Assembly: GCA_963737065.1 (NCBI GenBank)
Contig: CAVTRC010000001.1
Span: 320,001-384,000 of the forward strand
Source of the DNA: Candidatus Eremiobacteria bacterium
Lineage (GTDB): Bacteria > Vulcanimicrobiota > Vulcanimicrobiia > Vulcanimicrobiales > Vulcanimicrobiaceae
Length of the DNA: 64,000 nucleotides
Direction of reading: 5' to 3'
Shown here: piece by piece, positions 18,688 to 43,720 of the stretch
Layout: each line of letters begins with the position of its first letter
How positions within the stretch are numbered: the first letter of the stretch is position 1
Notes under the pieces: model-generated
Seen by the model: only the letters and a program-made list of their open reading frames with translations
Told to the model about the DNA's origin: nothing
The model's database searches: none
Made by a program: the position numbers and the translations under genes

Positions 18688-19422
18688 ATGCGGACGGTTG
18701 AACGCGGCGAGACGCTCGCGATGCTGGCGAGATCGTCCATTTTCGGCTCGTGCGACGAGAACATACTGTCGTTGCTTGTCGAACACGCATCCGTCCACTT
18801 CGCGGAGCGAGGCACGGTGATCGCGGGCGCCGGCAAGCCGTTTCCCTATGTCGGCCTCGTCTCCAAAGGCATTGTCAGCGTTACCGTAAACGCGAATACA
18901 CCGGCACGTTCCGTCCGGCGCGTCGAGCTCTACGAGGCGCGCGACGGCGGTGTCTTCGGCGCCGCCGGTTTCTTCGGATCCGCGCCGCCCTTGGGCGACA
19001 TCGTCGCGATCGCCCGGCGCACGACGTACGTGCTCATTCCCGCAAGCACGCTAAAACGCGCGCTCTCGATGGACCGCCGGCTTTTTTGGCGCATGACGTC
19101 TGCGCTCGCTACGCGCGTCCGCGCGATGGCACAACAACTTACTGCGACCAAAGGTCTTCCCGCGACCGCACGTGTCGCTTCGGTTCTCCTCCGGTTCACG
19201 TCCGACCAAGACGGGCTGCAGCCCGCGCATGCCGCGCTCGCAACGATTACGCACCGCGACATCGCAGCGGCAGCGGCATGCGTGAAGGAATCCGCAGCAC
19301 GCGCAATCTCGAAGCTCGAGTCAGCCGGTGCGCTGCGTCGTGAAAAGGGACACATCACATATCTCGATCGCGGCGTCTTATCGCACTGCGCGGAGATGAC
19401 CGGGACCGGCTCGGCGCTTTAG
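18688..19422 (+). CDS. Crp/Fnr-family transcriptional regulator
   Basis: cNMP-binding-like N-terminal domain and C-terminal HTH (THRDIAAAAACVKESAARAISKLESAGAL). GGAGG SD. Confidence 0.85.
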   Translation: MRTVERGETLAMLARSSIFGSCDENILSLLVEHASVHFAERGTVIAGAGKPFPYVGLVSKGIVSVTVNANTPARSVRRVELYEARDGGVFGAAGFFGSAPPLGDIVAIARRTTYVLIPASTLKRALSMDRRLFWRMTSALATRVRAMAQQLTATKGLPATARVASVLLRFTSDQDGLQPAHAALATITHRDIAAAAACVKESAARAISKLESAGALRREKGHITYLDRGVLSHCAEMTGTGSAL

Positions 19423-19423
19423 C

Positions 19424-19696
19424 ATGGTTCGCATCGTTCTCGATGGAGAGTTGGATCTGAGCGCAAAAGACGCTCTAACCGAGCGACTCCATGAGGCGAC
19501 CGATGCGGACGTCGCTGTCATCGACCTCTCTCGCGTAACGTATCTCGATAGCACGGCGATCCATTGCTTCATTGAGCTGAAAAACCGCATGATCGGCCGC
19601 GGGCACGCCGGAGTCGTCAAACTGCTCTCTCCGCACGATCGCATCCGGAAAATTTTTGAGCTATGCGATCTCAACCGCTTGTTCCCAATCGTGTAA
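19424..19696 (+). CDS. STAS-domain anti-sigma factor antagonist
   Basis: LDGELDL, VIDLSRVTYLDSTAI (with the phosphorylatable Ser) and RKIFELCDL motifs. Confidence 0.88.
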   Translation: MVRIVLDGELDLSAKDALTERLHEATDADVAVIDLSRVTYLDSTAIHCFIELKNRMIGRGHAGVVKLLSPHDRIRKIFELCDLNRLFPIV

Positions 19697-19804: not shown

Positions 19805-20338
19805 ATGACGAAGAACGCCGAGCAACTCATGACGCGAGTGCGTGCACGCGATACGGATGCGTTCGAAGCGCTGTACGACGCGCATCATCGGCTCGTGTAC
19901 GGACTAGCTGCTCGCATGCTAGGCGACGTTTCCGGCGCTGAAGACGTAACACAAGCGGTGTTTTTGAAGGTATGGCTGGCGCCAGACCGATTTCACGGCG
20001 GGAATTTTCCGGCATGGATCGCGCGCATAACGCGCAATCGCGCGCTCGACGTGTTGCGCACACGAAGCACTCGCGAGTGTGAGCTTCCGTTCGCTATGTC
20101 CGAAGACGTCCCACTGGAAGAAACGGCGTTTGCGAATCTTGATGCCGACATCGTGCGCCGTGCGGTTGCAGCGCTGCCGCAAGAGCAGCGTGAGCCGATC
20201 GAACTCGGCTTCTTCAGCGGCATAACGTACGAAGAAATTTCGCGGCGAAGCGGCGTTCCGCTCGGAACCGTTAAAACGCGTATCCGCATGGGATTGAGAA
20301 AGCTGCGCTCCTTACTCGAAGGAGCGGTAACGGTATGA
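19805..20338 (+). CDS. ECF sigma factor, SigK-like
   Basis: AFEALYD, AEDVTQAVFLKVW, WIARITRNRALD and region 4 TYEEIS..GVPLGTVKTRIR motifs. Confidence 0.93.
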   Translation: MTKNAEQLMTRVRARDTDAFEALYDAHHRLVYGLAARMLGDVSGAEDVTQAVFLKVWLAPDRFHGGNFPAWIARITRNRALDVLRTRSTRECELPFAMSEDVPLEETAFANLDADIVRRAVAALPQEQREPIELGFFSGITYEEISRRSGVPLGTVKTRIRMGLRKLRSLLEGAVTV

Positions 20339-21066
20339 ACGGCGCACACGCGGACATGCTCGATGAAGTCGCCGTGTACGTGCTCGGAACGCTGCCCGAG
20401 GATGAGAGCGAACGCGTGCGCCGGCACATCGAATCATGCAGCGATTGCCGGGCGGAATACGAGGCGCTTCTCCCCGTCGTCGGTGCACTGGCCCGGGTTG
20501 CTGAAGCGCCCGCCGGCGCCGCGATCGGCTCAACTGATGCGTCGTCCTTACTGAAGGCGCGCATCATGCGTGAGGTTCGTCCGAGTAAGCGTAACACCGC
20601 GTTGCCGGCGTATCTCGTGGCCGCGGCCTGCGCGGTGATCGCACTCGGCTTCGGCTGGGAGACTTTGACGCTCGGAAAACAGCTTCACAACGTACAAGAG
20701 TCGTATTCCTCGATTGCGCGAGCGCATACGAACGACGAGAGCGCATTGGCTGACTTAGTGAGCGCACGGGCGAAGCGGTATATCGTTCCGGGCGGTGAAA
20801 TCGTGAAGTCAAACAATCGCATATACATTGCGATGAGCCATATGCCGAAGCCACCGGCTGGGAAAGTCTATCAAGCGTGGACCCAGCCGCACGGGTCGAA
20901 GACGATGGTTCCCGGACTGACGTTTGTGCCGAACGATCGCGGTGTAGCAATCGTACGAGTCTCGTCCGATGCAAGCGCGTTGCACGCGGTCGCGGTCAGC
21001 ATCGAGCCACCGGGCGGAAGTAAAGCTCCCACAACGTCCCCGGTGGTCGTCGAAGTCCTCGACTGA
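20335..21066 (+). CDS. RskA-family anti-sigma factor with an N-terminal ZAS zinc site
   Basis: H…HIESCSDC (HxxxCxxC), one TM segment, and C-terminal PAGKVYQAW / AVSIEPPGGSKAPT motifs. Confidence 0.92.
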   Translation: MNGAHADMLDEVAVYVLGTLPEDESERVRRHIESCSDCRAEYEALLPVVGALARVAEAPAGAAIGSTDASSLLKARIMREVRPSKRNTALPAYLVAAACAVIALGFGWETLTLGKQLHNVQESYSSIARAHTNDESALADLVSARAKRYIVPGGEIVKSNNRIYIAMSHMPKPPAGKVYQAWTQPHGSKTMVPGLTFVPNDRGVAIVRVSSDASALHAVAVSIEPPGGSKAPTTSPVVVEVLD

Positions 21067-21103
21067 TGATTTGAACGAACCGTCCGGTTCGGTCTACATG
21101 AAC

Positions 21104-22427
21104 CTATAAATGTTGGTCGAGCGACGCCAACTCTGTACGAGCCTGCTGTGCGTACGTTGGATCGAATTGCGGGTTCTCCGCGAGTGCCGAACTGGAGAAG
21201 CGACCGCGCTCTTATCGTCTGCCCGTCGTGCAGCGCGATCATTGCTGCATGATACCGTATGCGGGGATCTTGCGTGTTATATCTGGTCGCGAGGCGTATA
21301 GCGTTCCGCGCCATCGTCCATTGTCCGGCCGCAGCCGCACACCAGGCGAGCGTATCTTGCGCATAGATTTCGTCACCGCGATGCGCCACCTCGCGTTGCG
21401 CGATGTGTAAGCCGTCCGCAACCCGTACACCGTGTTCGCAATAGTAGACCGCAAGAAGACGATCGTTGATGTGATAGGCATTTCCAAGCCGCTCGACCGC
21501 GTAGATCAAGTCGCGCGTTCGTTGAGCGGCCGCCGCGTCGCCGAGTGCGTTTTGCGCGTCGCTCTCGTATCCTAGGATCTCCGGCTCCGGAACGATATTC
21601 GCGCCGGTTTGCGCAGATTTGAGCGCGCATTCCCAGTCGCGGCTTGCCCAACAAAAGCGCGCGAGGGCACGGTATGCCATTTCAAAATTACCGAACTGCG
21701 ATATCGCAACACGCTCCTCGCGCTCGGCGGAAGCAACGTCGCCCGCCGAAAATGCGAGTTCACCCGCGCGAAAATGATACCAGGCACGTGCTTGTGCCGA
21801 ATTGTCGGCTACAGCGTCGGATTGCGCGGTAGCGCGCGCTAGCGCTGTGCGCGCGCGTTCGAGATTGCCCGTGAGCTCGTCATATCGAGCTTGAACCGCT
21901 AGGACGGTTGGCGTCACATGGATTGCGGACGCGATTCGAAGATCGCGCGCTGCGGCCCGGTAATCGCCAAGCTCCATCTGCAGCGACGCCATCTGCGAGG
22001 GCGCATTTGAGTCATTGGGTTGATCCGCGTGCGCGGCTGTCTCGTACGCCAACGCCGTCGGAAAAAGGTGCAGCGCCGTATATGCCGATGCTGCGATTTC
22101 GTCCGCTGCAGCATTGTTTTGCGGTTGTAGCTTAAGGGACCGCTTCGCGTCGCGTATCGCGCGCAGAATGTCGGCTACATCCTGTTCTTCGCGGTAACGT
22201 TGCATGTACTGCGCCGCCAGAAGTTTCGCGCTGATTTGATCCTGCGGATATGCCCGCACACGCTGCTCGTAAAATGCGATCGTCGCGTTTCGAAACGTGT
22301 AATCGGGCAGCACCGGCGCAACGTACGCCTGAGCCGACGCCGGCCGGTGCGACGCGAATACCGGCCATGCGGCGACTGCTATAATTGCAGCCGCCGCTAT
22401 GATCGTCGTCGAGATGCGAAGCTTCAG
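21104..22427 (-). CDS. TPR protein, paralog of 24082-25386; CTG start and a one-base frameshift near the 3' end
   Basis: Colinear with the paralog. Removing one base at about 21190 restores …LLQSALAENPQFDPTYAQQARTELASLDQHL*. GGAG-N7-CTG overlaps the upstream TGA. Confidence 0.8.
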
Positions 22428-23143
22428 TGAGGTGCTCCTAAGTAGGGGAACGCCGTCGTGAAATGCTTCGGTGCGGTTTGCCACGATACGTGATCCGACG
22501 TGAGGTCGGGGCGGTGCCCCGACGGGTACGTCGCGTCAGCTCGTCCATCGGACTCTTTCATATCGTCGGGGGCGAGTCCAAGGCTCGGAATCGTTTTTCC
22601 GAAAATCGTTCCAAGCGAGAGATCAACCACGTCGTCCGTGAGCGCGCGACCGCCGAATGGCTTTAACGCCGCCGGCGCTTGCGTGGCGCCTTTCGTTTCA
22701 ATGCCAAGGTAGTTGTTGCACGTGCCCGGAGCAGTGCCGATACACGATTGGCTTGTTCCGGAGAGATCGACGATTTGCACGTCCGGCGTCAGCACGCTTC
22801 GCTCGACGGTCGCGATCGCGGTGCTACGGCCGGCAACGTTCGTCATGAACGCCATGATTTGAGGACCAAGGACGGCCGCATCTTGATTAGGAGTATCGAT
22901 ATTGTTCCCTTGATGCTCGGCGAACGTCGCGAACACTTCGTTAACGGCCGGCCGATTCAAACGGTCGAGTTGCTTGTACGGGCCGGCGCCCAATGATGTT
23001 AGTTCCGGATTGCCGCCCGGGGGATTCGATGGTGCAACGGGTGCTCCACCGTTTGGCGATGTGGTGCTGCCTCCACCCGAACAGGATATGAGCAGAAGCG
23101 ATGCGGCAAGAGAGACGGTAGCTGAAAATAGTATACGTCGCAT
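22424..23143 (-). CDS. Lipoprotein equivalent to the C-terminal half of DUF4331
   Basis: Lipobox LISC and QLDRLNRPAVNE, GGRALTDDVVDLSL and FPYLGAPH motifs. Confidence 0.85.
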   Translation of the reverse strand: MRRILFSATVSLAASLLLISCSGGGSTTSPNGGAPVAPSNPPGGNPELTSLGAGPYKQLDRLNRPAVNEVFATFAEHQGNNIDTPNQDAAVLGPQIMAFMTNVAGRSTAIATVERSVLTPDVQIVDLSGTSQSCIGTAPGTCNNYLGIETKGATQAPAALKPFGGRALTDDVVDLSLGTIFGKTIPSLGLAPDDMKESDGRADATYPSGHRPDLTSDHVSWQTAPKHFTTAFPYLGAPH

Positions 23144-23150
23144 CGTTCAC

Positions 23151-23909
23151 CTAGCTCCCACTCGACGTGTATGTCGTGACCCAGTATGCGATCTTCGGTC
23201 CGTTGCAGCCGGCGATCAAATCGGCACGCGGCATCTCAATGACGATCGAGAGCACGTTGTAACCCGTGAAAAAGTCTTGTCCCGGATCGTTGAATCCCTG
23301 AGGACACGTTCCGTTTCCGAGTTTCGGAAGGCAGCTTGGCGCCATGCTTCCTCTGTTGCGATCGGGAAGTATTTTAAGGAACTGCGCCAGATCGAAGAAG
23401 AACGGCTCTTCGCGGGCGCCCGCGAAAACCTGCATATCGCCGACCTTGAAGGGCTGGCCGATCGTTCCTTGCCCGGTCATCGGCACGAGCGATGCTTGAT
23501 TTCCAAGCGATACGGGGTGCGCGGGCCCGTTGACGTAGATCGGTTGATTTGCACCCGGTTGACCCGCTACGACCTGGATCACGAACGATTGGTAAATGCT
23601 TTGCGATGGCGTCATCGTGTTCTCGTCTTCGCCATCGAAGTTCATTTGGTAGATTACGCCGGGATCGAAGAACGTGGAGGAGCCCTGGCCGCTCGGGATG
23701 AGCGGATGGACGTTCATCACCATGACGACGTTCTTGGCGTTGTCCGGCGCCGGGAAAATGTATGGATCGGTAATGTCGGCGCCCGGTCTACCGATAGTGA
23801 CGGGGGAGTCTTGATGATCGGAAGCTCTCGCGGCAAACGTCATATACAGTCCGAAAGCAAGCACGAGAGTTGCGAGCATCGCGACGCCGCCGAGCAGTCG
23901 CGATTTCAT
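23151..23909 (-). CDS. Secreted protein equivalent to the N-terminal half of DUF4331
   Basis: Signal peptide ARA|SDHQDSP, and ADITDPYIF, FAGAREEPFFFDL and GYNVLSIVIEMP motifs. Confidence 0.85.
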   Translation of the reverse strand: MKSRLLGGVAMLATLVLAFGLYMTFAARASDHQDSPVTIGRPGADITDPYIFPAPDNAKNVVMVMNVHPLIPSGQGSSTFFDPGVIYQMNFDGEDENTMTPSQSIYQSFVIQVVAGQPGANQPIYVNGPAHPVSLGNQASLVPMTGQGTIGQPFKVGDMQVFAGAREEPFFFDLAQFLKILPDRNRGSMAPSCLPKLGNGTCPQGFNDPGQDFFTGYNVLSIVIEMPRADLIAGCNGPKIAYWVTTYTSSGS

Positions 23910-23955
23910 AGATTGGTAATCGCTCCGTTGAAGGAAATTCCGAGTAATGGGGACA

Positions 23956-23982
23956 CAACGGCCGGGATCGATAGGCGGATGT
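23956..23982 (-). promoter_or_regulatory. ECF-type promoter ACATCC-N16-CGTTG
   Basis: Upstream of the split DUF4331 operon, with the same spacing as three other copies. Confidence 0.55.
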
Positions 23983-24047
23983 AACGACGCGCGATTTAGG
24001 GTCGGAAGCCCTAAGCAAACCCGGTAAAGGGCCTATACCAAAAAAGG

Positions 24048-24074
24048 CAATCCATACCGCGCGTCTGCACGTTG
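24048..24074 (+). promoter_or_regulatory. ECF-type promoter CAATCC-N16-CGTTG
   Basis: Ends 7 nt before GTG 24082, consistent with a leaderless mRNA. Confidence 0.65.
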
Positions 24075-24081
24075 ATACCTC

Positions 24082-25386
24082 GTGCGCGCGTTTCGTGTAA
24101 TCGCCGTTATTGCGGCGGTGGCAATCATACTCTGGCCATTTTTCGGGAACCGGCATGGAGACGCGGCTGCATTCCAAGCCCCGATAACACGCGACTATCT
24201 CGTGCGCGATCGTGTCATCTCGTTTTACGAGCGGCGCATGCGTGAAGATCCGGCTGATGGTTTGAGTGCGCGTTTGCTTGCGAGCCAGTATCTGCAGCGC
24301 TACCGCGAAACACTCGACGTTGGGGATGTCACGCGTGGCATCGGCGAAGCCGCATATTCGCTTCGCCGGCAACCCGCGCACAACGCAGCCGCAGACGAAC
24401 TCGCTGCATCGGGATACTACGCGCTCCACGATTTCACGCGCGCATTGTATTTTGAAAATCTAGCGCACGGTACCGATTCGGCCGATGCAAACGCTCCCTC
24501 GCAGATGGCCCTGCTCGCGATGGAGTTGGGGCACTACGCGCAGGCACAATCGTTCATCCGGGAGGCGGCGCGCGCGGGCGCAGGGCCGGCGGAATGGTCG
24601 GCGGAGGCGCGCTATGACGAATTGACGGGATCGATCGACTCCGCCAAAGCCCTAATGGAGCGCGCCGCGCAACGAAGCGATGCGGTGATCGACACGCCGG
24701 CGTCCTCTCGAGCTTGGTACCACGTTCGTCTTGGCGAGATGGCTTTCGCGACCGGCGACGTTAACCGTGCAGAAGCCGAGGAGCATATCGCGCTCGTCGA
24801 CTTTCCTCGATACGAACTCGCATATCGAGCGCTAGCGCGATTCTGTTGGGCGGACCGTGACTGGCGTTGCGCGCTCGATACGGCGCGAACCGGCGCGCAG
24901 ATTCTTCCCGAACCCGAAATTCTCGGTTACGAGAGTGATGCGCAACGTGCGCTCGGCGACGTTCAAGGCGCGCGTCGAACACGAGACCTTATCTTCGCCG
25001 TTGAACGCATCGGCAACGCCTACCACATCAACGATCGCCTTCTGGCGACATATTATTCGGAACATGGTGTCCGGCTCGAAGACGCGTTTGCGATCGCACA
25101 GCGAGAAGTAACGCTCCGCGGAACCGAGATCTTCGCACAAGACACTTTTGCTTGGGCCGCGGCAATGGCCGGTCGTTGGGCGATCGCCGACCGCGCAAGC
25201 GCGAACGCCATGCGGTTTAACACCCAAGACTCACGGATTCTTTTCCACGCGGGCGCTATCGCGTATCACTTCGGTCGAACGGCGCGCGCTCGCGCGCTGC
25301 TGCGGCGCGCCCTCGCGCTAAACGCGCATTTCGATCCTTTCTACACCGTGCAAGCGCAAAGCATGCTTGCTACACTCTCGCAGTAA
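24082..25386 (+). CDS. Membrane-anchored or secreted TPR protein
   Basis: N-terminal hydrophobic segment, TPR helices, and AWYHVRLGE and AQDTFAWA motifs. Confidence 0.88.
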   Translation: MRAFRVIAVIAAVAIILWPFFGNRHGDAAAFQAPITRDYLVRDRVISFYERRMREDPADGLSARLLASQYLQRYRETLDVGDVTRGIGEAAYSLRRQPAHNAAADELAASGYYALHDFTRALYFENLAHGTDSADANAPSQMALLAMELGHYAQAQSFIREAARAGAGPAEWSAEARYDELTGSIDSAKALMERAAQRSDAVIDTPASSRAWYHVRLGEMAFATGDVNRAEAEEHIALVDFPRYELAYRALARFCWADRDWRCALDTARTGAQILPEPEILGYESDAQRALGDVQGARRTRDLIFAVERIGNAYHINDRLLATYYSEHGVRLEDAFAIAQREVTLRGTEIFAQDTFAWAAAMAGRWAIADRASANAMRFNTQDSRILFHAGAIAYHFGRTARARALLRRALALNAHFDPFYTVQAQSMLATLSQ

Positions 25387-25407
25387 CATCGGAGCAACCA
25401 CACAACA

Positions 25408-26688
25408 ATGAGATCGTCGTCTCGCCTCGCTTTCCCGATCTTTGCCGTGTTCCTCGCCGTTGTCGCACTCACGCTGTATCTACCGCGGACGGCGCGCACT
25501 TCCGACCATCAAGACTCGCCGCTGATGGTGGGGCGTCCCGGCGCGGACATCACCGACGTGTTCGTCTTTCCCGCAGCGAACCCCAATGATGTCGTCCTCG
25601 CAATGAACGTTCATCCCTTGATCGCCGCTGGAACGTACAGTACGGTATCGTTCGATCCTGGGGTTATGTATCAGTTCAAAATCGCGACGAACGGCGGCTA
25701 TCGTGAAAATAAAGTCATCCAGTTCCGTGCAATCGGATCGGGCCCGTCGCAACGCATTGAGATGTATGGGCCCGCGGCACCGGCAACACCGGGAACGGTC
25801 TCGCAGTGGGCCGGCTCACCGCAAACGTTCACCGTTAATCGCAAGGCGCAACTCTCCGGCGGGATCATCGCGATGGCCGGTCCAAGGCAAGACCCTTTCT
25901 ATTTCGATCTGGCCCAGTTCCTCAAGATCGTTCCTGACCGCAGCTATAAGTACCACCCGCCGGCGGGGAACGGCGTGCCGGCGCCCTCGGCGCGGTGTTT
26001 CCGCAAGCCGGGTGTCGATACGCTGCGCGGTTACGATGTTCTATCGTTCGTCGTAGAACTGCCGCGCCGGATGCTCGCCAACTCCAACGGAAAACTCGGC
26101 GTTATTCGTGTCTACGCGACCACGTCAACCGAACAGAACGGCCGATGGATTCAGGTGGAGCGGCTCGGGCGTCCTGCGGTGAAGGAAGCGTTTCAAATGT
26201 ATGAGCGTCACGACGCGACGAATCGGAGTGCTCCGTGGAACGATCCGCTGCTGCCGCACGATATCATTTCGTTTATGACGTCGCCGCGCGCCGCGCACCG
26301 TTCGATGCAACTCGCGAAAGCCGTAGAAGCCGTACTGATTCCTGATGAAATGGAAGCAGATCTCTCCGCCGACGGACCCGCGCGTTATCTTGCTGTCGAG
26401 ACGAAAGGCAAGAGCGGACTGCCTACCGGCATCGTGCGAGTTGTCCCGGACTTTCCGCTCGGCGGCGTGAAGAAAGCGTTGAAGAACCCCTACCGTGATT
26501 TCGGCGGCCGCGATCCATCGAGCCCGGTCATCGATCTTTCACTCGGCATCATTTTCGGAACGCTCGGTGAAAAGGTCGGACTAGCGCCGCCCGACGGGCA
26601 ACAGACCGATTGTCTCACGAGCGACAACGTTCAACCACCGGATCGAGGCGTAACAAAAACGTTCCCATATCTCGGCGTGCCACTCTAA
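25408..26688 (+). CDS. Full-length secreted DUF4331-family protein
   Basis: ART|SDHQDSP, ADITDVFVF, AGPRQDPFYFDL, QVERLGRPAVKE and FPYLG motifs. Confidence 0.88.
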   Translation: MRSSSRLAFPIFAVFLAVVALTLYLPRTARTSDHQDSPLMVGRPGADITDVFVFPAANPNDVVLAMNVHPLIAAGTYSTVSFDPGVMYQFKIATNGGYRENKVIQFRAIGSGPSQRIEMYGPAAPATPGTVSQWAGSPQTFTVNRKAQLSGGIIAMAGPRQDPFYFDLAQFLKIVPDRSYKYHPPAGNGVPAPSARCFRKPGVDTLRGYDVLSFVVELPRRMLANSNGKLGVIRVYATTSTEQNGRWIQVERLGRPAVKEAFQMYERHDATNRSAPWNDPLLPHDIISFMTSPRAAHRSMQLAKAVEAVLIPDEMEADLSADGPARYLAVETKGKSGLPTGIVRVVPDFPLGGVKKALKNPYRDFGGRDPSSPVIDLSLGIIFGTLGEKVGLAPPDGQQTDCLTSDNVQPPDRGVTKTFPYLGVPL

Positions 26689-26711
26689 GAGTGCGCGCGC
26701 GATCGTCTGCA

Positions 26712-27206
26712 TCACGAGTGGGGCAGCGCGTCGAGTTCGTCGACGTTGACGTATCCGCGGTGTCGCGGTGGCGGCGGTGAAGTGACGACGATTCCCGCCG
26801 TCTGAATTTTGCCCGGAAGCGTGCCGCTGTCGTATACAAGCACGTGCGTTTGTTTCCGTGGCGCATAGAAATCGACGCTTTGCGGACGCCGGCCGGGGAT
26901 GACGACGCTTCCGGTGCCGCCGTTCTTCCCTCGGATACCAAAGATCCGCAAACGGCTTCCCGAAAAAACGATGGTAATGGAATCGCCGCCGTCGAAAGAG
27001 CGCGCGCTCTCGCCATGAAACCGTCCGTCGTCGCGATGGATGATCTGCCAACGGCCCGAGTACCGAACGTCCAAGATAGATTTTTCGTGTTCCGCGGCTA
27101 CCGACTGTACAACGGCCGACGCCGCGGCGGCCTGCGCCGCCCGTGGATCGGCCGCGTGACAGTCGACCAGCAGCGTTACGGCAACCGTCGCGGCCAAAAC
27201 CTTCAT
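26712..27206 (-). CDS. Secreted protein or lipoprotein with a galactose-binding-like beta-sandwich
   Basis: Signal peptide with Cys (LLVDC), then YSGRW…ITIVFSGSRLRIFG…G…V…VDFYA…VYDSG. Confidence 0.65.
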   Translation of the reverse strand: MKVLAATVAVTLLVDCHAADPRAAQAAAASAVVQSVAAEHEKSILDVRYSGRWQIIHRDDGRFHGESARSFDGGDSITIVFSGSRLRIFGIRGKNGGTGSVVIPGRRPQSVDFYAPRKQTHVLVYDSGTLPGKIQTAGIVVTSPPPPRHRGYVNVDELDALPHS

Positions 27207-27757
27207 TGAGTCGGATACGCTCGGTGCAAATCCATTATCGCTGCGGAAAGGATCACGTGAAATTCGGCATTGTTTCGAGGGCCGACGGCGGTATCGGCAT
27301 CCGCCTCGTGCATCAACGTAATGTGCATAGGCCGCGAAAGCATGTGTTCGAGCATATACCCGACGTCATATCGGCCATCCGGCATGACACCCGCATTGTA
27401 CAGTGAACGTGCCAGCGTAGGCGCCGGCGGAACGGATGCGTCGGGAAGGGAGATATGCTGACGTTCTACTTGGATAACGGCAAGGTGCACGAATGCGTCA
27501 AACGTTTTGAAAAACTGAGCGACGTTTGCCGCGCCGAATCGATGTTGAAGCGACGCGCTTTCCTTCGCCATATCCGGTCCCGCCAGATACGCAACGAGCT
27601 TCTCCGACGAAAACGATTTGGCGCCGCCACCGGCGGCGATCATTTGCGCGGTCAACGTCAGATCGGGCTTACCATAGTATCGCCCGTGCGATGCATTCAT
27701 CGCCGCTGACGAAGCACCATGAGTCAACGCCGCTGCCATCAAAAGCCCGAAAACCAT
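27203..27757 (-). CDS. Secreted all-alpha hypothetical protein with clustered His/Met residues
   Basis: Signal-like N-terminus and GKPDLTLTAQMIAAGGG, MLEHMLSRPMHITLMHEAD and EFHVIL segments. Confidence 0.7.
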   Translation of the reverse strand: MVFGLLMAAALTHGASSAAMNASHGRYYGKPDLTLTAQMIAAGGGAKSFSSEKLVAYLAGPDMAKESASLQHRFGAANVAQFFKTFDAFVHLAVIQVERQHISLPDASVPPAPTLARSLYNAGVMPDGRYDVGYMLEHMLSRPMHITLMHEADADTAVGPRNNAEFHVILSAAIMDLHRAYPTQ

Positions 27758-27842
27758 TATCACCGCCTCTCGTAGTCGCCGGTTGCTATTTTGCGTTTTC
27801 CCTCCAACCGGTGAATCGTTCCTTCCCTCGATGGATGGAGCA

Positions 27843-27869
27843 CAATCCGTCGCGCCGGCATCAACGTTG
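27843..27869 (+). promoter_or_regulatory. ECF-type promoter CAATCC-N16-CGTTG
   Basis: Ends 7 nt before ATG 27877, consistent with a leaderless mRNA. Confidence 0.65.
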
Positions 27870-27876
27870 ATTGCGT

Positions 27877-28071
27877 ATGGATCACGACGAGCGACACCAC
27901 TCGCATGTGCATGCGCATCTTGACGGCACGGTTCATTTTCACCGGCACGAACATGGCGGTTTCGATCACGAACACGAGCACGAGCACGAGCACGGAAACA
28001 ATCGGCAGGCGTTCGTCGGCGTGTCGAAAGCAAACAAAGAACGCGCGGACCCCGGCGCTCGGACATCGTAA
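27877..28071 (+). CDS. His-rich mini-protein (Hpn-like metal storage or chaperone)
   Basis: MDHDERHHSHVHAHLDGTVHFHRHEHGGFDHEHEHEHEHG…, with the promoter motif directly upstream. Confidence 0.65.
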   Translation: MDHDERHHSHVHAHLDGTVHFHRHEHGGFDHEHEHEHEHGNNRQAFVGVSKANKERADPGARTS

Positions 28072-28403
28072 TGCCGCGCAGAAAAGGCTCTGGCCGACTG
28101 GGACCTGTACGGTCGCTTCGACTACCGCTCGCCTTGGAACGCTGGTTCGGAGCGACTCTTTGCCTGCGGCCCGATCACTCGGCGAGCAGTCTGTTACTTG
28201 AGCTCGTACATGGAGGTCTGCGCCTCGCCCCGGGGTACATGCGGCGACACGCGGCAGCACTGCTCGCGCTTGAACGTGACGGTGCAGCGATCGCACGCGA
28301 AAACTACGCGCGCGCGCTCGGCGATACGTTCGGCGAACGGTATGTTGCACATGTCGAGGCGTGGATTCAAAGCGAGCGCGGCACTATCACCGCGTCGAGG
28401 TAA
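28071..28403 (+). CDS. Hypothetical protein, possibly with a ribbon-helix-helix-like N-terminus
   Basis: TAATG coupling to the His-rich ORF. Basic N-terminus followed by VRSLRLPLALERWF. Confidence 0.55.
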   Translation: MPRRKGSGRLGPVRSLRLPLALERWFGATLCLRPDHSASSLLLELVHGGLRLAPGYMRRHAAALLALERDGAAIARENYARALGDTFGERYVAHVEAWIQSERGTITASR

Positions 28404-28417
28404 ACAACACGCCAAAA

Positions 28418-30703
28418 TTATGGGGTGAAGGAATATTGCACCCGAACCGTACGAGCTTCCGACGGATGGAAATGATAGTCGTTTATACCGGCGCCGCCGA
28501 GTGCGGGATTCACGCCGGCGTTGTGGACGTTCGCGAGGCTGGCGTCTTGCGGCAACCAGGAGGCGTAATAGTACGTAACGTCGTCCGGGTGCGCGTTTAA
28601 GACATTAAAGAGTCCGATCGTCAACCGCCGGCGTCCAGAGAGTTTCGCCGTGTATTCCGCGTTCAGCAGCGTAGACGGGCTGGAGTACGCGTCGCCTTGC
28701 GTATCCAGTGGACGGGGGCCAAAATAGCGCATGCGAACACTGGCCGCATAGTGCGGCTTGTCGACCGTAACGCCGAGCGACGCGACCGCGCTCAGTGATT
28801 CGGGAACAAACGTTCCTCGACCGTCCGGATTCGTGAGGAACCGCGCAGCCGAATCGGCAATGTCCGCGTCGATCACAAGCCATTTCGTCGGGCGATAGTT
28901 GTTGGCAAATTCGATGCCTTTGCGCCGGCTCGGACCGCCCAGAGACGTCGTACCGTGATCGCCATCGAAGATCAGTTCATTCGCCTGAAACAGCTGCCAC
29001 AACGACACCGTGCTGACCAGTTTATCGTTTGTGAAGCGATAGCCGACCTCATCTCCAACCGACCGATTCAGCAGACCGTTCTGAGCGACAGCCGTGCCCG
29101 TATAGTCGAACCGTTCGTGCGTCTGCGGATCGTCGATGTATGTCACGCCGCGCACGTCGTTTGAGTGAAAGCTTTCTCCGAAGTCGAGATACAACTCGTT
29201 TCTTGAGTTGATTGTATAAGCAACGTTCATCTTTGGACTAATGAGACCGGCTGATCCACGACCGCTATTTTTCGGGTCGTACGCGGCATCGCTGTAACCG
29301 TACACGTCGGCTCGGATCCCCGGATCGATTCTCCATTTACTGGAGAGCCGGAGTTTCGACTGGATATAGATATAGGCGGGCCGCTCAACCACGTGATCGT
29401 CACTAAGGGTTCCATCACGAAATCGCTCGCGATCCCTTACAAGAAACAAGCCGACGGTCGGGATGTTGAAGTTTGTGAATCCTGCTCCGAAGGTCGTCGT
29501 GCTACCGGGAGTATCGACGGTCCGGGTAACGTTTAACCCCTCGAAGAAGCGATTGTCGAGCTGTTCCCGCTGGTCGCCGCACTGAAAGTTGTAGGAGACG
29601 GGCGTAAGCGATCCGGGCGCCGCACCCGCCGGCGCCGTATACGCGGGGCAGTACGAAGCGTAGTTCGGTGCTCGTAGTCTGCTTGTCCCATTCGCGACGC
29701 ATGTGGTATATGCGGTGTTACACGTGATGGGGTTGGCGGTTTCGTTGAAGTAATTCGTCGCATCGTAGAAATCGTAGGTGAAGTTCGAGAAAAGGTCGAG
29801 CCGGTACGCGACTGCATAGGCGTCGACCGCAAACGATCCATTGTGTACGTTGCGCGTCCATTGCGTCGAAAGCGTGAAGTAGCTCGTCGTGCCACCGTCG
29901 CTCGCATCGATGTAGCCGAATCGGCTAAGTTCGTCATCGTCGACGAGGCGCTGCGGAATTTGGTCGCTCGAGTCAAACGTGCCGCTATAGGCGCTCGCAG
30001 TGGCCGTGAAGCTGCCACTCGGACGCACCACGCTGTAGCGAAAGACGCCGTCGTATTTATTGTATTCGTCGGGCTTAACGAATGAGCCGTTATCGTGATA
30101 GACCTCGATCGCGTACAGCAGATTGCCCGCACCGCTCGGATGCGACGCCGCGGTGAAAAACCGGTCATATCCGAAGTCGCCGATTCCAACCGACGTCGTG
30201 GCCGCGATCGTGTCGCGATAGTAGACGTTGTAAGAACCAGCCGTAGAGAAGTCGCCTTGATCGGCGTAATACGTTCCTTTTTTGTATTCGACATTGTTTA
30301 CCAGCTCGGGCATCAGCCAATTGATATCCGAGTAGCCCTGGCCGTGAGCGTGCGTCGGCAGGTTGACGGGAATCCCGTTCACCGTGGAGTCGAGATCCGT
30401 TCCGTGATCGAGCTGAAAGCCGCGTAGATAGTATTGATTCGCCTTGCCTTCGCCGCTGTGTTGGCTGACGACGAGTCCCGGGATTTGCTCTAGTATTTCG
30501 CCCGGACGCAAGATCGGACGCGTCGCGATGTCTTGTTGACTGATGAAACCTTCCGAGGCCGCCGTCGCCGTGCCGATCAGGTTCGTGCTGCGGCCGGTCG
30601 TTTTGACGTTGCCGATCAGCTTGAGCGGAGGCGGAGATGGCGAGGGCGTGGGCGACGGTGTGACGATCGCGAGCGTTGCGCTGAAAAGCACGACAAGCAG
30701 CAT
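28418..30703 (-). CDS. TonB-dependent receptor of the type often found in Ni/Co loci
   Basis: Plug motifs RPGEILEQIPG, QHSGEGKANQYYLRGFQLDHGTD and HAHGQGYSD. Beta-barrel ending in FNVLN…HFHPSEARTVRVQYSF. Confidence 0.9.
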   Translation of the reverse strand: MLLVVLFSATLAIVTPSPTPSPSPPPLKLIGNVKTTGRSTNLIGTATAASEGFISQQDIATRPILRPGEILEQIPGLVVSQHSGEGKANQYYLRGFQLDHGTDLDSTVNGIPVNLPTHAHGQGYSDINWLMPELVNNVEYKKGTYYADQGDFSTAGSYNVYYRDTIAATTSVGIGDFGYDRFFTAASHPSGAGNLLYAIEVYHDNGSFVKPDEYNKYDGVFRYSVVRPSGSFTATASAYSGTFDSSDQIPQRLVDDDELSRFGYIDASDGGTTSYFTLSTQWTRNVHNGSFAVDAYAVAYRLDLFSNFTYDFYDATNYFNETANPITCNTAYTTCVANGTSRLRAPNYASYCPAYTAPAGAAPGSLTPVSYNFQCGDQREQLDNRFFEGLNVTRTVDTPGSTTTFGAGFTNFNIPTVGLFLVRDRERFRDGTLSDDHVVERPAYIYIQSKLRLSSKWRIDPGIRADVYGYSDAAYDPKNSGRGSAGLISPKMNVAYTINSRNELYLDFGESFHSNDVRGVTYIDDPQTHERFDYTGTAVAQNGLLNRSVGDEVGYRFTNDKLVSTVSLWQLFQANELIFDGDHGTTSLGGPSRRKGIEFANNYRPTKWLVIDADIADSAARFLTNPDGRGTFVPESLSAVASLGVTVDKPHYAASVRMRYFGPRPLDTQGDAYSSPSTLLNAEYTAKLSGRRRLTIGLFNVLNAHPDDVTYYYASWLPQDASLANVHNAGVNPALGGAGINDYHFHPSEARTVRVQYSFTP

Positions 30704-30831
30704 GGTTGTGCCGACAACGTTCTTCCGCGCGCATTCAGATTGAATTTGCCGTTATTGTCTACGAAATTGCACTGGCAAGCGCCCTGTCGTTGATTTTCGT
30801 CAGCTCGTTACGACGAATTTCGCTGACGTGG

Positions 30832-30858
30832 CAATCCAACCGGCGTCTTTGCTCGTTG
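30832..30858 (+). promoter_or_regulatory. ECF-type promoter CAATCC-N16-CGTTG
   Basis: 33 nt upstream of the GTG of the Ni/Co transporter operon. Confidence 0.65.
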
Positions 30859-30891
30859 ATAGCGCATATCGTGACCGGTCGGGGAGGCAGA

Positions 30892-32415
30892 GTGCGTTCG
30901 GGTCTTTGGAGCGGAGTAGTTGCCTGTCTCGTTTTGCTTTTCGCCGCCGGTCAACCGGTCGAGGCGCATCCGCTTGGGAATTTCACGATCAATCGCCTGG
31001 TTGAAGTCCGCGCAACGTCCGGAATGCTGCACGTTCGATACGTGGTCGATCGGGCGGAAATCCCGACCTTTCAGCTCATGCGCGCTTCATCGACCGACGC
31101 AAGCTGGACGCCCGCCCAGCTTCGTGCATGGGCAGATGAACAGCCCGCGCTCATCACCGAAGGGTTGAATGTTCTCGTCGACGGACGGCGCGCGCCGTTG
31201 CGGCCCGCCGGCGATTTTGCGAAACTGCGACCCGGGGCGGGTGGCCTGCCGATCCTCTACTGGTCAGGCGCCTTTACTACGCCGCTCTCCGACGGTCGCC
31301 ATCACATCGTCGTAGAAGATCGCGTGTTCGACGCGAATCGCATTGGGTGGAAAGACGTCGTCATCGCGCCCCAGACTGAGCCGACGCACGAACTGCTTTC
31401 GTATCCACCGGCGCTCATTTCTTCACCGCGCGCCGTGGAATCGGCGTCGTTTGATCTGTCGGCAACCGCCGGCGTCTCGCACATTGTCGATAATGTCGAT
31501 GACAACGGCGAAGGCGCGTCATCGGGTGTCTCAATTGTCAGGTCGAATGCGCTTTCCGACATGTTCGCGAACCCCAACCGCGCGCCGCTCTTTCTGTTAT
31601 TGACGGCGCTTGTCGCGTTTGGGCTCGGCGCACTGCACGCAATTGAACCCGGTCATGGCAAGGCGCTGCTGGCGTTCACGTTGGTTGGATCGCGCGCAAC
31701 CGTTAAACAAGCAGCAATTCTCGCGGCGTCTCTTACGTTCGCTCATACGATCGGCGTGCTCGTGCTCGGCGTCGTGCTCTTCTTCGCCGCCGGGTTCGCA
31801 ACCGAGTCGATCTATTCGTGGATAACGTTGATCTCCGGTATAGCGGTCGCTGTCATCGGCGCGAGAAATCTTTCGCGATATCTTCATGCGCGCGGGATAC
31901 ACGCCCACGGCGACGGCCACGTTCACGCGCATGATGCGCACGATCATCACCATGGTGATGCCGCGCACGCGCATTCGCACGCGATTCCGGGAACGCGGCC
32001 CATCGACTTTCGCGCGGCCGTCGTCGCGGCGATGAGCGGCGGCGTCGCGCCATGTCCCGCGGCAATCGTCGTCATGCTTGCGGCGCTGCGATTGCATCAA
32101 ATCGGCTACGGCATCGTTCTCATCGTCATCTTCAGCCTCGGTCTTGCATGCGTCCTCACCGGAATCGGTATTGCGGTCGTTCATGGATCGGCGTGGATTG
32201 GACGAAGCGGGCGGTTCGATCGGATGATCGCATACGGTCCGCTCGCTTCGGCCGTGCTCATTTCGCTCGTCGGTGCGGTGATGGTCGGTCAAGGATTCGT
32301 CGCGGAGGGAATCCGAGCTCCCCTCGCGCTCCTCGTTGGAATTACCGTGCTGGCAATTGCCGGATACGCGCTCGCACCGCAACACACTCACGCGCACGCA
32401 ATAGGTGAATCATGA
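30892..32415 (+). CDS. RcnA/NicO-type Ni/Co transporter fused to an N-terminal periplasmic domain
   Basis: GGGGAGG SD, VEA|HPLGNF, HAIEPGHGK, a His-rich loop (HAHGDGHVHAHDAHDHHHGD…) and PCP motif. Confidence 0.9.
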   Translation: MRSGLWSGVVACLVLLFAAGQPVEAHPLGNFTINRLVEVRATSGMLHVRYVVDRAEIPTFQLMRASSTDASWTPAQLRAWADEQPALITEGLNVLVDGRRAPLRPAGDFAKLRPGAGGLPILYWSGAFTTPLSDGRHHIVVEDRVFDANRIGWKDVVIAPQTEPTHELLSYPPALISSPRAVESASFDLSATAGVSHIVDNVDDNGEGASSGVSIVRSNALSDMFANPNRAPLFLLLTALVAFGLGALHAIEPGHGKALLAFTLVGSRATVKQAAILAASLTFAHTIGVLVLGVVLFFAAGFATESIYSWITLISGIAVAVIGARNLSRYLHARGIHAHGDGHVHAHDAHDHHHGDAAHAHSHAIPGTRPIDFRAAVVAAMSGGVAPCPAAIVVMLAALRLHQIGYGIVLIVIFSLGLACVLTGIGIAVVHGSAWIGRSGRFDRMIAYGPLASAVLISLVGAVMVGQGFVAEGIRAPLALLVGITVLAIAGYALAPQHTHAHAIGES

Positions 32416-33209
32416 TCGGTACCACGGCATTTACCGTCTTCACGTTGGGCCTGCGACACGGCGCCGACCCCGACCATCTTGCCGCGATCGATAACATGAC
32501 GAGAAACTCGATCGTACGCGCGCCGCGTCTTTCGCGTTTCATCGGTGCGCTTTTCGCGGGCGGCCATACGATTATGGTTCTCGCGATCGCAATGCTCGTC
32601 GGCTTCTTAGGAACGCGTTTCGCCGCACATGGCGCAGCGATCGAAACAGCCGGAACGTGGATCTCAATCATCGTGCTTCTCGCCATCGCGGGCCTTAATC
32701 TGCGGCAACTTCAACTCGGGCAGAACGATCGGGTTGCCGGACTGAAATCGCGACTGCTTCCGGCGAGTCTGCGTAATGCGACGTCGCCTCTCGTCGCGAT
32801 TCCGGTCGGCTTGCTCTTCGGGTTCGGCTTTGAGACTTCGAGCCAAATCGCAACGTACGCGCTTGCGTTCGGTATTGACGCCGGCATGGCGGGCGCGCTG
32901 GCCGTCGGTTCGACATTCTGTGCCGGCATGATCTGCACCGATACGCTCGATTCGCTCTTTGTCCACCGAATCGTCTCCTACCGCGCCGGTCAGTTACCTC
33001 GCGTAATGCGCGTGTGGATATGGTCGGTTACGATCTTTGCAATCGTCGTTGCGGCGTACGAGCTCGCGCAACTGCTCGGGTGGAAGCCGCCCTTCCCCGA
33101 CATTTCGGTGAGTGCGGTCCTCGTCACAGCGCTCGCGGCAGTCTTCGCATGGATCTTTTTCGCGACGCGCGCGGTCCGGCGCGTCGATCCGGTCCTGCAA
33201 CAGTATTAA
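32412..33209 (+). CDS. HoxN/HupN/NixA-family (NiCoT) high-affinity Ni/Co permease
   Basis: LGLRHGADPDHLAAIDNMTR, FAGGH and GLLFGFGFETSSQ motifs. ATGA coupling. Confidence 0.92.
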   Translation: MIGTTAFTVFTLGLRHGADPDHLAAIDNMTRNSIVRAPRLSRFIGALFAGGHTIMVLAIAMLVGFLGTRFAAHGAAIETAGTWISIIVLLAIAGLNLRQLQLGQNDRVAGLKSRLLPASLRNATSPLVAIPVGLLFGFGFETSSQIATYALAFGIDAGMAGALAVGSTFCAGMICTDTLDSLFVHRIVSYRAGQLPRVMRVWIWSVTIFAIVVAAYELAQLLGWKPPFPDISVSAVLVTALAAVFAWIFFATRAVRRVDPVLQQY

Positions 33210-42607: not shown

Positions 42608-43720
42608 TCAAACTTGATAACGCCGCGCGTCTGCGCGCTTCAACGTTAAACCGATTCCGGGCCGAGTCAAATCCGGCTCCAGTTTCCCATCGATGGGATC
42701 GCTTATGCCCTCGAACAACATGCGCTCGATGCGCGCGTGATCGTAGAAATACTCCATGTGGCGCAGCATTTTGCACGCGAGGGCCGCATGCAGTTGCAGG
42801 TGCGGCGCGCAATGTGTCGAGAGCGGCATCATCGCCGTCTGAGCGAGACCGTCGACGGCAAGCAATCCGCTGAAGCCGCCGCAGCGCGTCGCATCCGCTT
42901 GTAAACAATCAACGGTCTTCGCTTCGAGCATGCGCCAAAAATGATACAAGCCGTATCCATACTCGCCCGATGCAACGTCCATGCACGCCGGCGCCCGTTC
43001 GCGAATCTGCGAGAGCCCTTCAAAGTCCTGATGGTAGACCGGCTCTTCGAACCAGCTTACGCGCAGATCCGCAAATTTCTCGGCAAACTGCATCGCCTGC
43101 TTGCGCGAATAGGCGCCGTTCGCGTCGACGAACAACTCGGCGTCGTTGCCAATCGCACGCCGCGCTTCGGTAACGCGCTCCACGTCGCGCGAAGGCTCTC
43201 GTCCGATCTTCATCTTGACGCGCGGAATGCCCGACGCGACCCAGCCGCTTAGCTGATCGCGCAGCCGCTCGAGCGTATACGAAGTAAATCCACCACTCCC
43301 GTAGACCGGCGCCGCGCTGCGCGCATTTCCGAGCAACACGCAGACCGGCGCATCGAGCAATTTGCCTTTCAAATCCCAGAGCGCGACGTCGACAGCCGAG
43401 ATCGCCATCGACGTAATCCCATCGCGACCGAGATTGCGGATCTTCCCCTGCATGTCGGCAAATCGTTTGCCGGTTGCGAGTGCGTCCGCGCCCTTGAGCA
43501 GCTCGCGAAACTCAGAATGAATGACGCTCGCCGTCGCTTCGTCCGCGTACGTGAAGCCGATGCCGGTTTCACCGCCGGCCGTGACCTCGACGAAGACCAT
43601 CGTCGTCGCATCCCACACGGCGGTGCCGTCGGATTCCGGACCGCCGTCGGTTGGGATTCGAAAGACCGATACGTCGACCGCGTCGATTGCTGCTTCCGTG
43701 CGCGGCGTCGTCGCCGTCAC
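42608..43720 (-). CDS. Mandelate racemase / muconate lactonizing enolase-superfamily protein
   Basis: DVALWDLKGK, KMKIG, metal ligands in VDAN / FEEP / GEY, and THC. Confidence 0.9.
   Translation of the reverse strand: MTATTPRTEAAIDAVDVSVFRIPTDGGPESDGTAVWDATTMVFVEVTAGGETGIGFTYADEATASVIHSEFRELLKGADALATGKRFADMQGKIRNLGRDGITSMAISAVDVALWDLKGKLLDAPVCVLLGNARSAAPVYGSGGFTSYTLERLRDQLSGWVASGIPRVKMKIGREPSRDVERVTEARRAIGNDAELFVDANGAYSRKQAMQFAEKFADLRVSWFEEPVYHQDFEGLSQIRERAPACMDVASGEYGYGLYHFWRMLEAKTVDCLQADATRCGGFSGLLAVDGLAQTAMMPLSTHCAPHLQLHAALACKMLRHMEYFYDHARIERMLFEGISDPIDGKLEPDLTRPGIGLTLKRADARRYQV

Follow-up and report, generated by a model that had tools for sequence, protein, structure and literature searches.

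A proposed pair of separately regulated gene sets, likely for nickel or a similar metal, in Candidatus Eremiobacteria

We report on a locus at positions 19805 to 33209 in a stretch of 64,000 nucleotides from a Candidatus Eremiobacteria genome; the whole stretch is called the window here, and positions refer to it unless a contig of the genome is named. The host genome (3.08 Mb, 2 contigs, 95% complete) has relatives with named homologues of the window genes in Eremiobacterota/Vulcanimicrobiota. A preliminary description presented the locus as a complete route of nickel or cobalt import under an extracytoplasmic function (ECF) sigma factor. All genes named in it were found in place by Pfam and NCBIfam checks, and two open reading frames (ORFs) absent from it were added: a conserved one of 110 aa, referred to as orf110, and one of 164 aa (Table 1). 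We believe that the locus likely comprises two separately regulated gene sets for nickel or a similar metal and not one sigma-controlled import chain. Module A is formed by the DUF4331 and tetratricopeptide repeat (TPR) proteins, an RcnA-type permease and a short NiCoT-like permease, with a promoter of the ECF18/19 type; module B is formed by a TonB-dependent receptor, a His-rich mini-protein and orf110.

Table 1. Features of the locus, in window coordinates
Feature	Position	Strand	Basis or remark
ECF sigma, SigK-like	19805..20338	+	Pfam Sigma70_r2/r4; NCBIfam SigK 127 bits vs cut-off 226
RskA-type anti-sigma, N-terminal HxxxCxxC zinc finger	20335..21066	+	Pfam RskA_C, zf-HC2; NF052375 121.9 bits vs cut-off 100
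TPR1, exported TPR-like	21104..22427	-	58% identical to TPR2; frame shift near 21,190
DUF4331 C-half, separate predicted lipoprotein (LLISC)	22424..23143	-	Pfam PF14224 positions 249-421
DUF4331 N-half, predicted secreted	23151..23909	-	Pfam; mature start likely S-D-H after A-R-A
Promoter TACATCC-N16-CGTTGT, DUF4331-N/DUF4331-C/TPR1 unit	23956..23983	-	Motif search
Promoter GCAATCC-N16-CGTTGATA, TPR2/DUF4331 unit	24047..24077	+	Motif search
TPR2, exported TPR-like, N-terminal hydrophobic anchor	24082..25386	+	Pfam; 49-row alignment
Full-length DUF4331	25408..26688	+	Pfam; structure model; mature start likely S-D-H
164-aa predicted exported protein, no family	26712..27206	-	Not found in relatives' loci
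Secreted His/Met protein, unnamed family	27203..27760	-	48 homologues; H145, H167 invariant
Promoter ACAATCC-N16-CGTTGATT, His-rich mini-gene	27842..27872	+	Motif search
His-rich mini-protein, 64 aa, 15 His	27877..28071	+	Stop overlaps next gene's start
orf110, 110-aa conserved protein, putative RHH-like N-terminus	28071..28403	+	Homologue alignment
TonB-dependent receptor	28418..30703	-	Pfam; homologues beside NikR, HoxN/HupN, NiFe-hydrogenase genes
Near-palindrome TTGTCTACGA, candidate orf110 operator	30755..30764	.	52 nt upstream of receptor start
Promoter GCAATCC-N16-CGTTGATA, two permease genes	30831..30861	+	Motif search
RcnA-type permease with N-terminal anglerase-like domain	30892..32415	+	Pfam NicO PF03824; NCBIfam; structure model
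Short NiCoT-like permease, 265 aa, RHGADPDH	32412..33209	+	Pfam; TIGR00802 76.7 bits vs 333.05

The four transcription units that had been credited with a common promoter motif do share one. The core MATCC-N16-CGTTG matches 4 times in the 64-kb window against 0.45 +/- 0.63 expected, a number reached in 0 of 100 shuffles, and three of the four genome-wide matches to the strict form AATCC-N16-CGTTGA fall in the locus. The core match of the DUF4331 N-half unit lies at 23956-23981 on the minus strand; the others start at 24049, 27844 and 30833 on the plus strand. The permease promoter has the top genome-wide score for a matrix trained on the relatives, in which ATCC-N16-CG(T/A)(T/A) precedes 19 of 23 RcnA-type genes; the assignment of an ECF-type promoter to the DUF4331, TPR and permease genes thus holds. 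The TPR2 start (GTG) and that of the His-rich mini-gene (ATG) each lie 7 nt past the -10 hexamer, and both transcripts are likely leaderless. No such motif was found in the window upstream of the receptor, the His/Met protein or the sigma/anti-sigma genes; an autoregulatory motif is absent in the host genome and was found at 4 of 11 sigma genes of relatives. A search for ATCC-N15-17-CGT before DUF4331 in four Nostoc and Streptomycetaceae plasmid records gave nothing.

Judged by its partner and promoter, the sigma factor is of the ECF18/19 type: the RskA-type anti-sigma gene stands at +1, and the motif, with ATCC...CGT in the target promoters, agrees with both published consensus sequences, GCATCC/CGTAT for ECF18 (in the part of PMC13492112 consulted) and 'ATC/CG' for ECF19 (in the portion of the PMC7826278 supplement consulted). 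It has a single cysteine (C92). We do not file it as ECF18 because the sigma-4 cysteine pair, which is typical of ECF18 and not defining for ECF19, is missing. A second SigK-like sigma/RskA pair (72% and 66% identical) lies at G000:C1:1150194-1151505 with no DUF4331 cassette adjoining; the TPR1 match at that place is the antisense of rskA, corresponding to the frameshifted tail of TPR1, and not a TPR remnant. Given this paralog and the missing cysteine pair, either sigma factor may read the motif. The suggestion that RskA senses metal found no support; in the sources as far as covered, the characterised ECF18/19 signals are redox, light, solvents or envelope repair. In its covered portion, the PMC7826278 supplement names DUF4331 among the neighbours of ECF18s13 and ECF214s1 and has fasciclin and DUF4394 in ECF18 contexts. 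Directly upstream of the sigma gene and on its strand are genes for a CRP/FNR-type regulator and a STAS anti-anti-sigma (18688-19696, +), which rarely recur in the DUF4331 loci of relatives.

The occurrence of module A was surveyed in 60 genomes of relatives and in 40 fetched DUF4331 loci plus the window, and wider surveys took in 251 genomes of the phylum and 177 of the family; the presence/absence counts include the unpublished genomes G025, G027, G034, G035 and G048. DUF4331 was found in 40 of the 60 relatives (41 of 61 genomes with the host), as well as in Nostoc and Streptomyces. The permease head domain is present in 35 of the 60, and 34 of these 35 have DUF4331. Among the DUF4331 loci, a TPR gene is found in 27 and an RcnA-type gene in 23; in 17 a canonical NiCoT, not the short one, lies behind the TPR gene, and 5 of 5 such genes scored pass TIGR00802 (390-394 bits). 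These canonical NiCoTs appear to be the best evidence for Ni or Co as the metal; with the receptor homologues beside nickel genes (see below) they sustain the metal link proposed before. The full permease profile has matches, some weak, in 135 of 251 genomes of the phylum. A genome scan for DUF4331 gave 47 loci, almost all in Eremiobacterota, and the evidence across phyla consists of four plasmid records, two of Nostoc and two of Streptomycetaceae, all with the gene order DUF4331-TPR-permease. Next to this triad there is a PEP-CTERM-type gene in Nostoc, whereas in Streptomyces a second DUF4331, a class F sortase, a molybdopterin oxidoreductase, fasciclin and DUF4394 follow it (L093 10444-11184; L095 10452-11111; L094 13043-18936).

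In the DUF4331 proteins an AxA-like site is followed by a conserved S/A-D-H, or by S-S-H in Streptomyces. D33 and H34 are conserved in 90% of 78 non-redundant full-length proteins, and a His-selecting regex matches 149 of 269 DUF4331 proteins; in 147 of these the match is SDH or ADH behind small residues. An ATCUN (amino-terminal Cu(II)- and Ni(II)-binding) motif is a free N-terminus with His at position 3. If cleavage, placed by the sequence pattern, falls where we expect, the mature protein with His as residue 3 likely has an ATCUN-type site. The structure model (predicted local distance difference test, pLDDT, 94.3) consists of a beta-sandwich plus a helical part. Its fold matches are weak and of the DOMON/CBM (carbohydrate-binding module) type: CBM74 of Sas6 (Z 7.8), the glucodextranase C-terminal domain (5.3) and ethylbenzene dehydrogenase chain C (4.7), with a weak likeness to CBM9 as well, in a wide fold search that covered the C-terminal 100 residues poorly. 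Foldseek with this model returned nothing at E <= 0.001, and the profile had no match among PDB sequences. A tethered protein is suggested by the lipobox-like Cys in 31 of 33 C-halves of split copies (loose regex) and by the class F sortase that adjoins the triad on both Streptomycetaceae plasmids. DUF4331 or PF14224 is not mentioned in the main texts of the full-text literature searched, which included the supplement of PMC7826278 alone among supplements.

In the TPR family H84 and H357 are invariant (49-row alignment). TPR1, whose probable CTG start overlaps the stop of the DUF4331 C-half, changes frame once relative to TPR2, and its family-like end stops near 21,104. Elsewhere in the genome (G000:C1:~1918900), the alpha gene of a nitrile hydratase likewise changes frame once; both changes may be an assembly error or decay.

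The RcnA-type permease contains HAIEPGHGK, a His-rich loop and GGVAPCP, and its mature protein would begin with His1 at 30967 (VEA|HPLGNFT), the cleavage again being placed by pattern. A-x-A followed by HPLGNFT was found in 23 of 23 RcnA-type copies, and the His1 motif is kept in Nostoc and Streptomyces. The head model (pLDDT 92.6) has 9GCE (Cu-bound Ang-1) as the top Foldseek match (E 3.7e-5), which was top again in a second search (Z 8.9, root-mean-square deviation 3.5, 137 aligned). Judging by this model, the head likely works like an anglerase; we do not file it as Ang-1 or Ang-2. Against NF007454 the protein scores 90.1, below the cut-off of 195, with HAxEPGH and the His-rich loop present; its membrane part matches NicO PF03824 only and not HupE/UreJ-2 (PF13795). 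The short NiCoT-like permease has the RHxxDxDH signature and a score under the TIGR00802 cut-off. Ang-1 binds Cu at 74 nM and Ni at 220 nM and, in the portion of PMC12537917 available, is proposed, not shown, to feed its permease. RcnA is described as a Ni/Co exporter (PMC7055735, in the part seen); since the characterised RcnA-type proteins are exporters, import by this one is not given. In one relative (G049) the short NiCoT-like permease and DUF4331 share a 692-aa open frame (L007:9332-11410), which is either a fusion or a read-through of adjacent genes.

In module B, orf110 has homologues in 55 of the 177 family genomes and in none of 73 others sampled. A His-rich ORF stands just upstream in 36 of 40 fetched orf110 loci; the His-rich protein seems to go with this putative regulator and not to be a metal store on its own. 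A NiCoT of the canonical type, different from that of the window, is found in 24 of these loci and the receptor in 11, and hypA/hypB/hydrogenase genes adjoin in 6. Module B is enriched in genomes with hydrogenase (odds ratio 4.5, kin not being independent). The invariant residues of orf110 are R14, R17, L18, P19, H47 and H94. In the Atlas its nearest named clusters are RHH_1/CopG at 0.85, which is a lead only; Pfam and PDB searches with 44 members gave no match, NikR_C (PF08753) was found neither in orf110 nor in the host genome, and the plasmid collection contained no orf110. Sequence look-ups and the literature searched (titles and abstract openings) yielded no description of it. We consider orf110 a candidate metal-responsive repressor with a ribbon-helix-helix (RHH)-like N-terminus. 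Most relatives have no ECF motif before the His/orf110 pair (it was seen in L050) and many show TATAAT-like sites, so the sigma coupling of this pair is presumably local to the host. In the same loci (here L134, L129, L131, L141, L157, L160, L161), an Nramp/MntH-type transporter occurs in 7 of 40, and a MalT-like regulator lies between NiCoT and hyp genes in 5.

The receptor has strong matches in only 10 of the 60 relatives. Its best homologue records show 33-40% identity along at least about 90% of the protein, and NikR, HoxN/HupN or hydrogenase genes lie within 6 kb in 4 of 6 records inspected, of 54 found. ExbD is present in the host genome. With no ECF motif, few relatives and a different palindrome upstream, the receptor does not fit one complete route under this sigma factor.

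This palindrome, TTGT-NN-ACAA, was derived from upstream regions. With one terminal mismatch allowed, it is found upstream of 20 of 22 canonical NiCoT genes beside orf110 and of 0 of 25 NiCoT genes in loci without orf110, at a background of 2.8%; the control was drawn as 26 NiCoT loci of genomes in which orf110 had no clear match, but one of these loci in fact held orf110 and lacks the box. The box-free controls include three close orthologues, and in the syntenic locus L172 the His-rich gene is kept while orf110 and the box are both absent. The box is carried by 2 of 6 distant NiCoT genes of orf110-positive genomes; of 18 receptor genes, 12 have a looser form ahead of them (background 10%), and the strict form stands before 1 of 52 module A permeases. 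The box precedes 1 of 17 NiCoT genes behind TPR, a comparison confounded by the operon-internal position of these genes. The association of box and orf110 seems overstated by these counts but clear, and since the palindrome tracks orf110 (20/22 against 0/25), an undescribed NikR-independent regulator is suggested. Of the 4 perfect TTGTAAACAA palindromes in the genome, one is found at 42899-42908, 12 kb away from the receptor. As a further operator candidate we considered the inverted repeat GTCAGC-N17-GCTGAC at about 30790-30820, and dropped it because it was seen only in the host genome. Another group of canonical NiCoT genes (L162, L164-L166, L168-L170, L189) stands directly behind a different His-rich ORF, without orf110 or box, and several of these are near hydrogenase genes.

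The preliminary description expected a user of NiFe hydrogenase or urease. Neither was found in the 95%-complete host genome, nor were LarA, HypA, CbiC and NikR, by searches with positive controls; nickel superoxide dismutase was not found either, in a search run without a positive control. Rfam on the locus gave no riboswitch and only two sub-threshold chance matches. Among the 177 family genomes, the permease with the anglerase-like head and hydrogenase occur together in 40, the permease alone in 60, hydrogenase alone in 11 and neither in 66 (3 weak permease matches dropped); these family counts assume the same genome draw across separate surveys of kin that are not independent. Thus 60 of 100 carriers have no hydrogenase match. 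Of the 35 carriers in the 60-genome set, 15 have no match to hydrogenase, urease or nitrile hydratase, with 6 weak hydrogenase matches and 1 weak urease match dropped, and in the family f3 the permease is found in 15 of 19 genomes, hydrogenase in 3 and nitrile hydratase in none. We rejected the simple view that nitrile hydratase determines where the cassette occurs (8/27/8/17, p 0.56). An association with the nickel economy exists, yet the cassette tracks DUF4331 much more tightly than any known client. From the co-occurrence in 34 of 35 genomes and the lack of hydrogenase, urease, HypA and NikR matches in the genome, DUF4331 is the likelier destination of the metal.

We therefore propose, giving it slightly less than an even chance, that the set under the ECF promoters loads metal onto DUF4331, and the uptake set is repressed by the RHH-like orf110 with its His-rich partner. 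In module A an envelope signal would release the sigma factor; the NiCoT-type permease would then import the metal, and the RcnA-type domain would pass it outward to its own His1 head. From this head it would go on to the ATCUN-type tip of DUF4331, which the TPR protein would keep in position. In this view DUF4331 would not just channel the metal but be its client, in all likelihood an envelope protein or enzyme that depends on metal. In module B, orf110, standing in for NikR, would bind the palindrome and stop uptake once metal is sensed, either by the His-rich partner or by H47/H94 of orf110. The ECF promoter before the His/orf110 pair would couple both modules in the host genome.

Several observations weigh against this proposal. 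The fold matches next after 9GCE are the zinc-type proteins ZrgA and PA4063, and the anglerase paper, in the part available, proposes inward delivery with Cu(II) bound best (PMC12537917); for both reasons neither the metal nor the direction is fixed. The fold matches of DUF4331 are weak (best Z 7.8) and partly of carbohydrate-binding proteins, and no catalytic site was identified in it. The paralogous sigma/RskA pair could serve these promoters. The RHH call for orf110 combines a 0.85 Atlas lead with a sequence pattern, and neither Pfam nor PDB gave a match. As to the operator, the window box has one mismatch, an orf110 locus (L167) has no box, about half of the 25 control NiCoT genes look operon-internal, and a single genus supplies many of the 22 test genes. 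The permease with the anglerase-like head is still enriched in genomes with hydrogenase (odds ratio 4.0, kin again not independent), and the genome does contain the Co-type nitrile hydratase motif (CTLCSCY), in the apparently frameshifted alpha gene mentioned above.

The last two points also speak for scavenging on behalf of the cytoplasm, in which DUF4331, TPR and the anglerase-like head capture periplasmic Ni/Co, which the two permeases then bring in to supply hydrogenase, nitrile hydratase or an enzyme that escaped recognition. The enrichment of module B with hydrogenase, the canonical NiCoT behind the TPR gene in 17 loci and the proposal that anglerases feed their permeases (PMC12537917, in the part available) agree with it. 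We nevertheless hold it somewhat unlikely, considering that no hydrogenase, urease, HypA or LarA was found in the host genome, that the counts in f3 run the other way, that the receptor is outside the ECF motif set in the window, and that a conserved 400-aa fold is large for a single terminal metal site. Delivery to DUF4331 is favoured over it by a modest margin because the linkage to DUF4331 is the tightest, RcnA is described as an exporter and the ECF18/19 signals characterised in the sources covered are of the kinds named above. The RcnA-family motif and His-rich loop could instead belong to detoxification: in response to envelope or metal stress, Ni/Co/Cu would be exported by the RcnA-type protein and sequestered in the periplasm by the His1 and ATCUN-type tips. 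For RpoP, a member of ECF18, the portion of the literature covered describes a link to Ni/Co resistance by way of envelope repair. With an importer-type NiCoT co-transcribed in many loci, and no RND efflux or copper-resistance family recurring among the clustered neighbours (clusters not run through Pfam), this is improbable. Quite improbable is also a surface complex of DUF4331 and TPR that binds glycans or another ligand within a SigK-type stress regulon, served indirectly by the permeases: it is in line with best fold matches that include CBM9, the C-terminal domain of glucodextranase and the CBM74 of Sas6, and with the fasciclin and DUF4394 neighbours in Streptomyces and in ECF18 contexts, whereas the conserved N-terminal X-X-His, the 34/35 link to the His1 permease and fold Z-scores that all stay under 8 speak against it.

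Module A has parts in common with several known systems. With the anglerases Ang-1/Ang-2 on HupE/UreJ-2 (PMC12537917; PDB 9GCE) the permease shares the signal-peptide-like leader followed by His1, the beta-sandwich head with a helical insert and a Ni/Co-type membrane domain; it differs in an identity of 12-14%, in a membrane part of the NicO/RcnA type, not HupE/UreJ-2, and in the tight linkage to DUF4331 and TPR, neither of which is named in the part of that paper available. HAxEPGH, GxxPCP and the His-rich loop are shared with E. coli RcnA (NF007454), and RHxxDxDH with NiCoT/HoxN (TIGR00802), but the window proteins score far below the cut-offs (90 vs 195; 77 vs 333); unlike RcnA, the window protein has an extra periplasmic head and an ECF motif upstream, not RcnR or NikR. 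The RskA-type zinc-finger anti-sigma at +1 and the ATCC-N16-CGT promoter are as in SigK-RskA and ECF18/ECF19 (PMC7826278 supplement; PMC7509140), from which the window differs by a sigma factor without the sigma-4 Cys pair, a motif preceding metal permeases and no autoregulatory motif. The combination of HupE, UreJ, TPR and anti-sigma had no match in the literature searched.

The candidate repressor orf110 resembles NikR in its palindromic site and in having genes of Ni importers and hydrogenase as neighbours, but it has 110 aa, no NikR_C and a 10-bp palindrome instead of GTATGA-N16-TCATAC. The His-rich/orf110 pair resembles SrnR/SrnQ of Streptomyces griseus (PMC7055735) as two small adjacent genes that could pair, whereas SrnR is of the ArsR family and controls sodF, according to the part of that paper seen. 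The same part calls NikR the sole metal-regulated RHH protein. The receptor is of one family (33-40% identity) with those near hoxN on C. necator pHG1 and in the Bradyrhizobium order hupN-receptor-cybH; in contrast to these loci, the search of the host genome found no hydrogenase or NikR.

If metal-responsive, orf110 would be a second metal-regulated RHH protein after NikR, and, if true, this would explain the control of nickel uptake in many hydrogenase-bearing soil Eremiobacterota. DUF4331 can now be tested directly, with a high-confidence model, a putative metal site and a set of partners to start from. The anglerases would be extended to a third permease type, which raises the question whether they serve metal import or the loading of periplasmic clients. 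It is tempting to generalise that Eremiobacterota have a second, NikR-independent metal-responsive RHH repressor (orf110 with a separate His-rich peptide sensor and TTGT-NN-ACAA) together with DUF4331 as a widespread class of envelope metalloenzymes, whose ATCUN site is loaded by an anglerase-exporter and TPR scaffold; as a whole, this is rather unlikely.

The secreted His/Met protein had no usable Atlas match, and four homologues had no Pfam match above cut-offs. Its family may be a further member of the regulon. Paralogs in the genome lie at G000:C1:1069162-1069779 (-) and G000:C1:105335-105820 (+), the one at C1:1069779 with an ECF motif just ahead of the ribosome site. In two relatives (L065, L066), one of them with the motif, homologues adjoin DUF4331.

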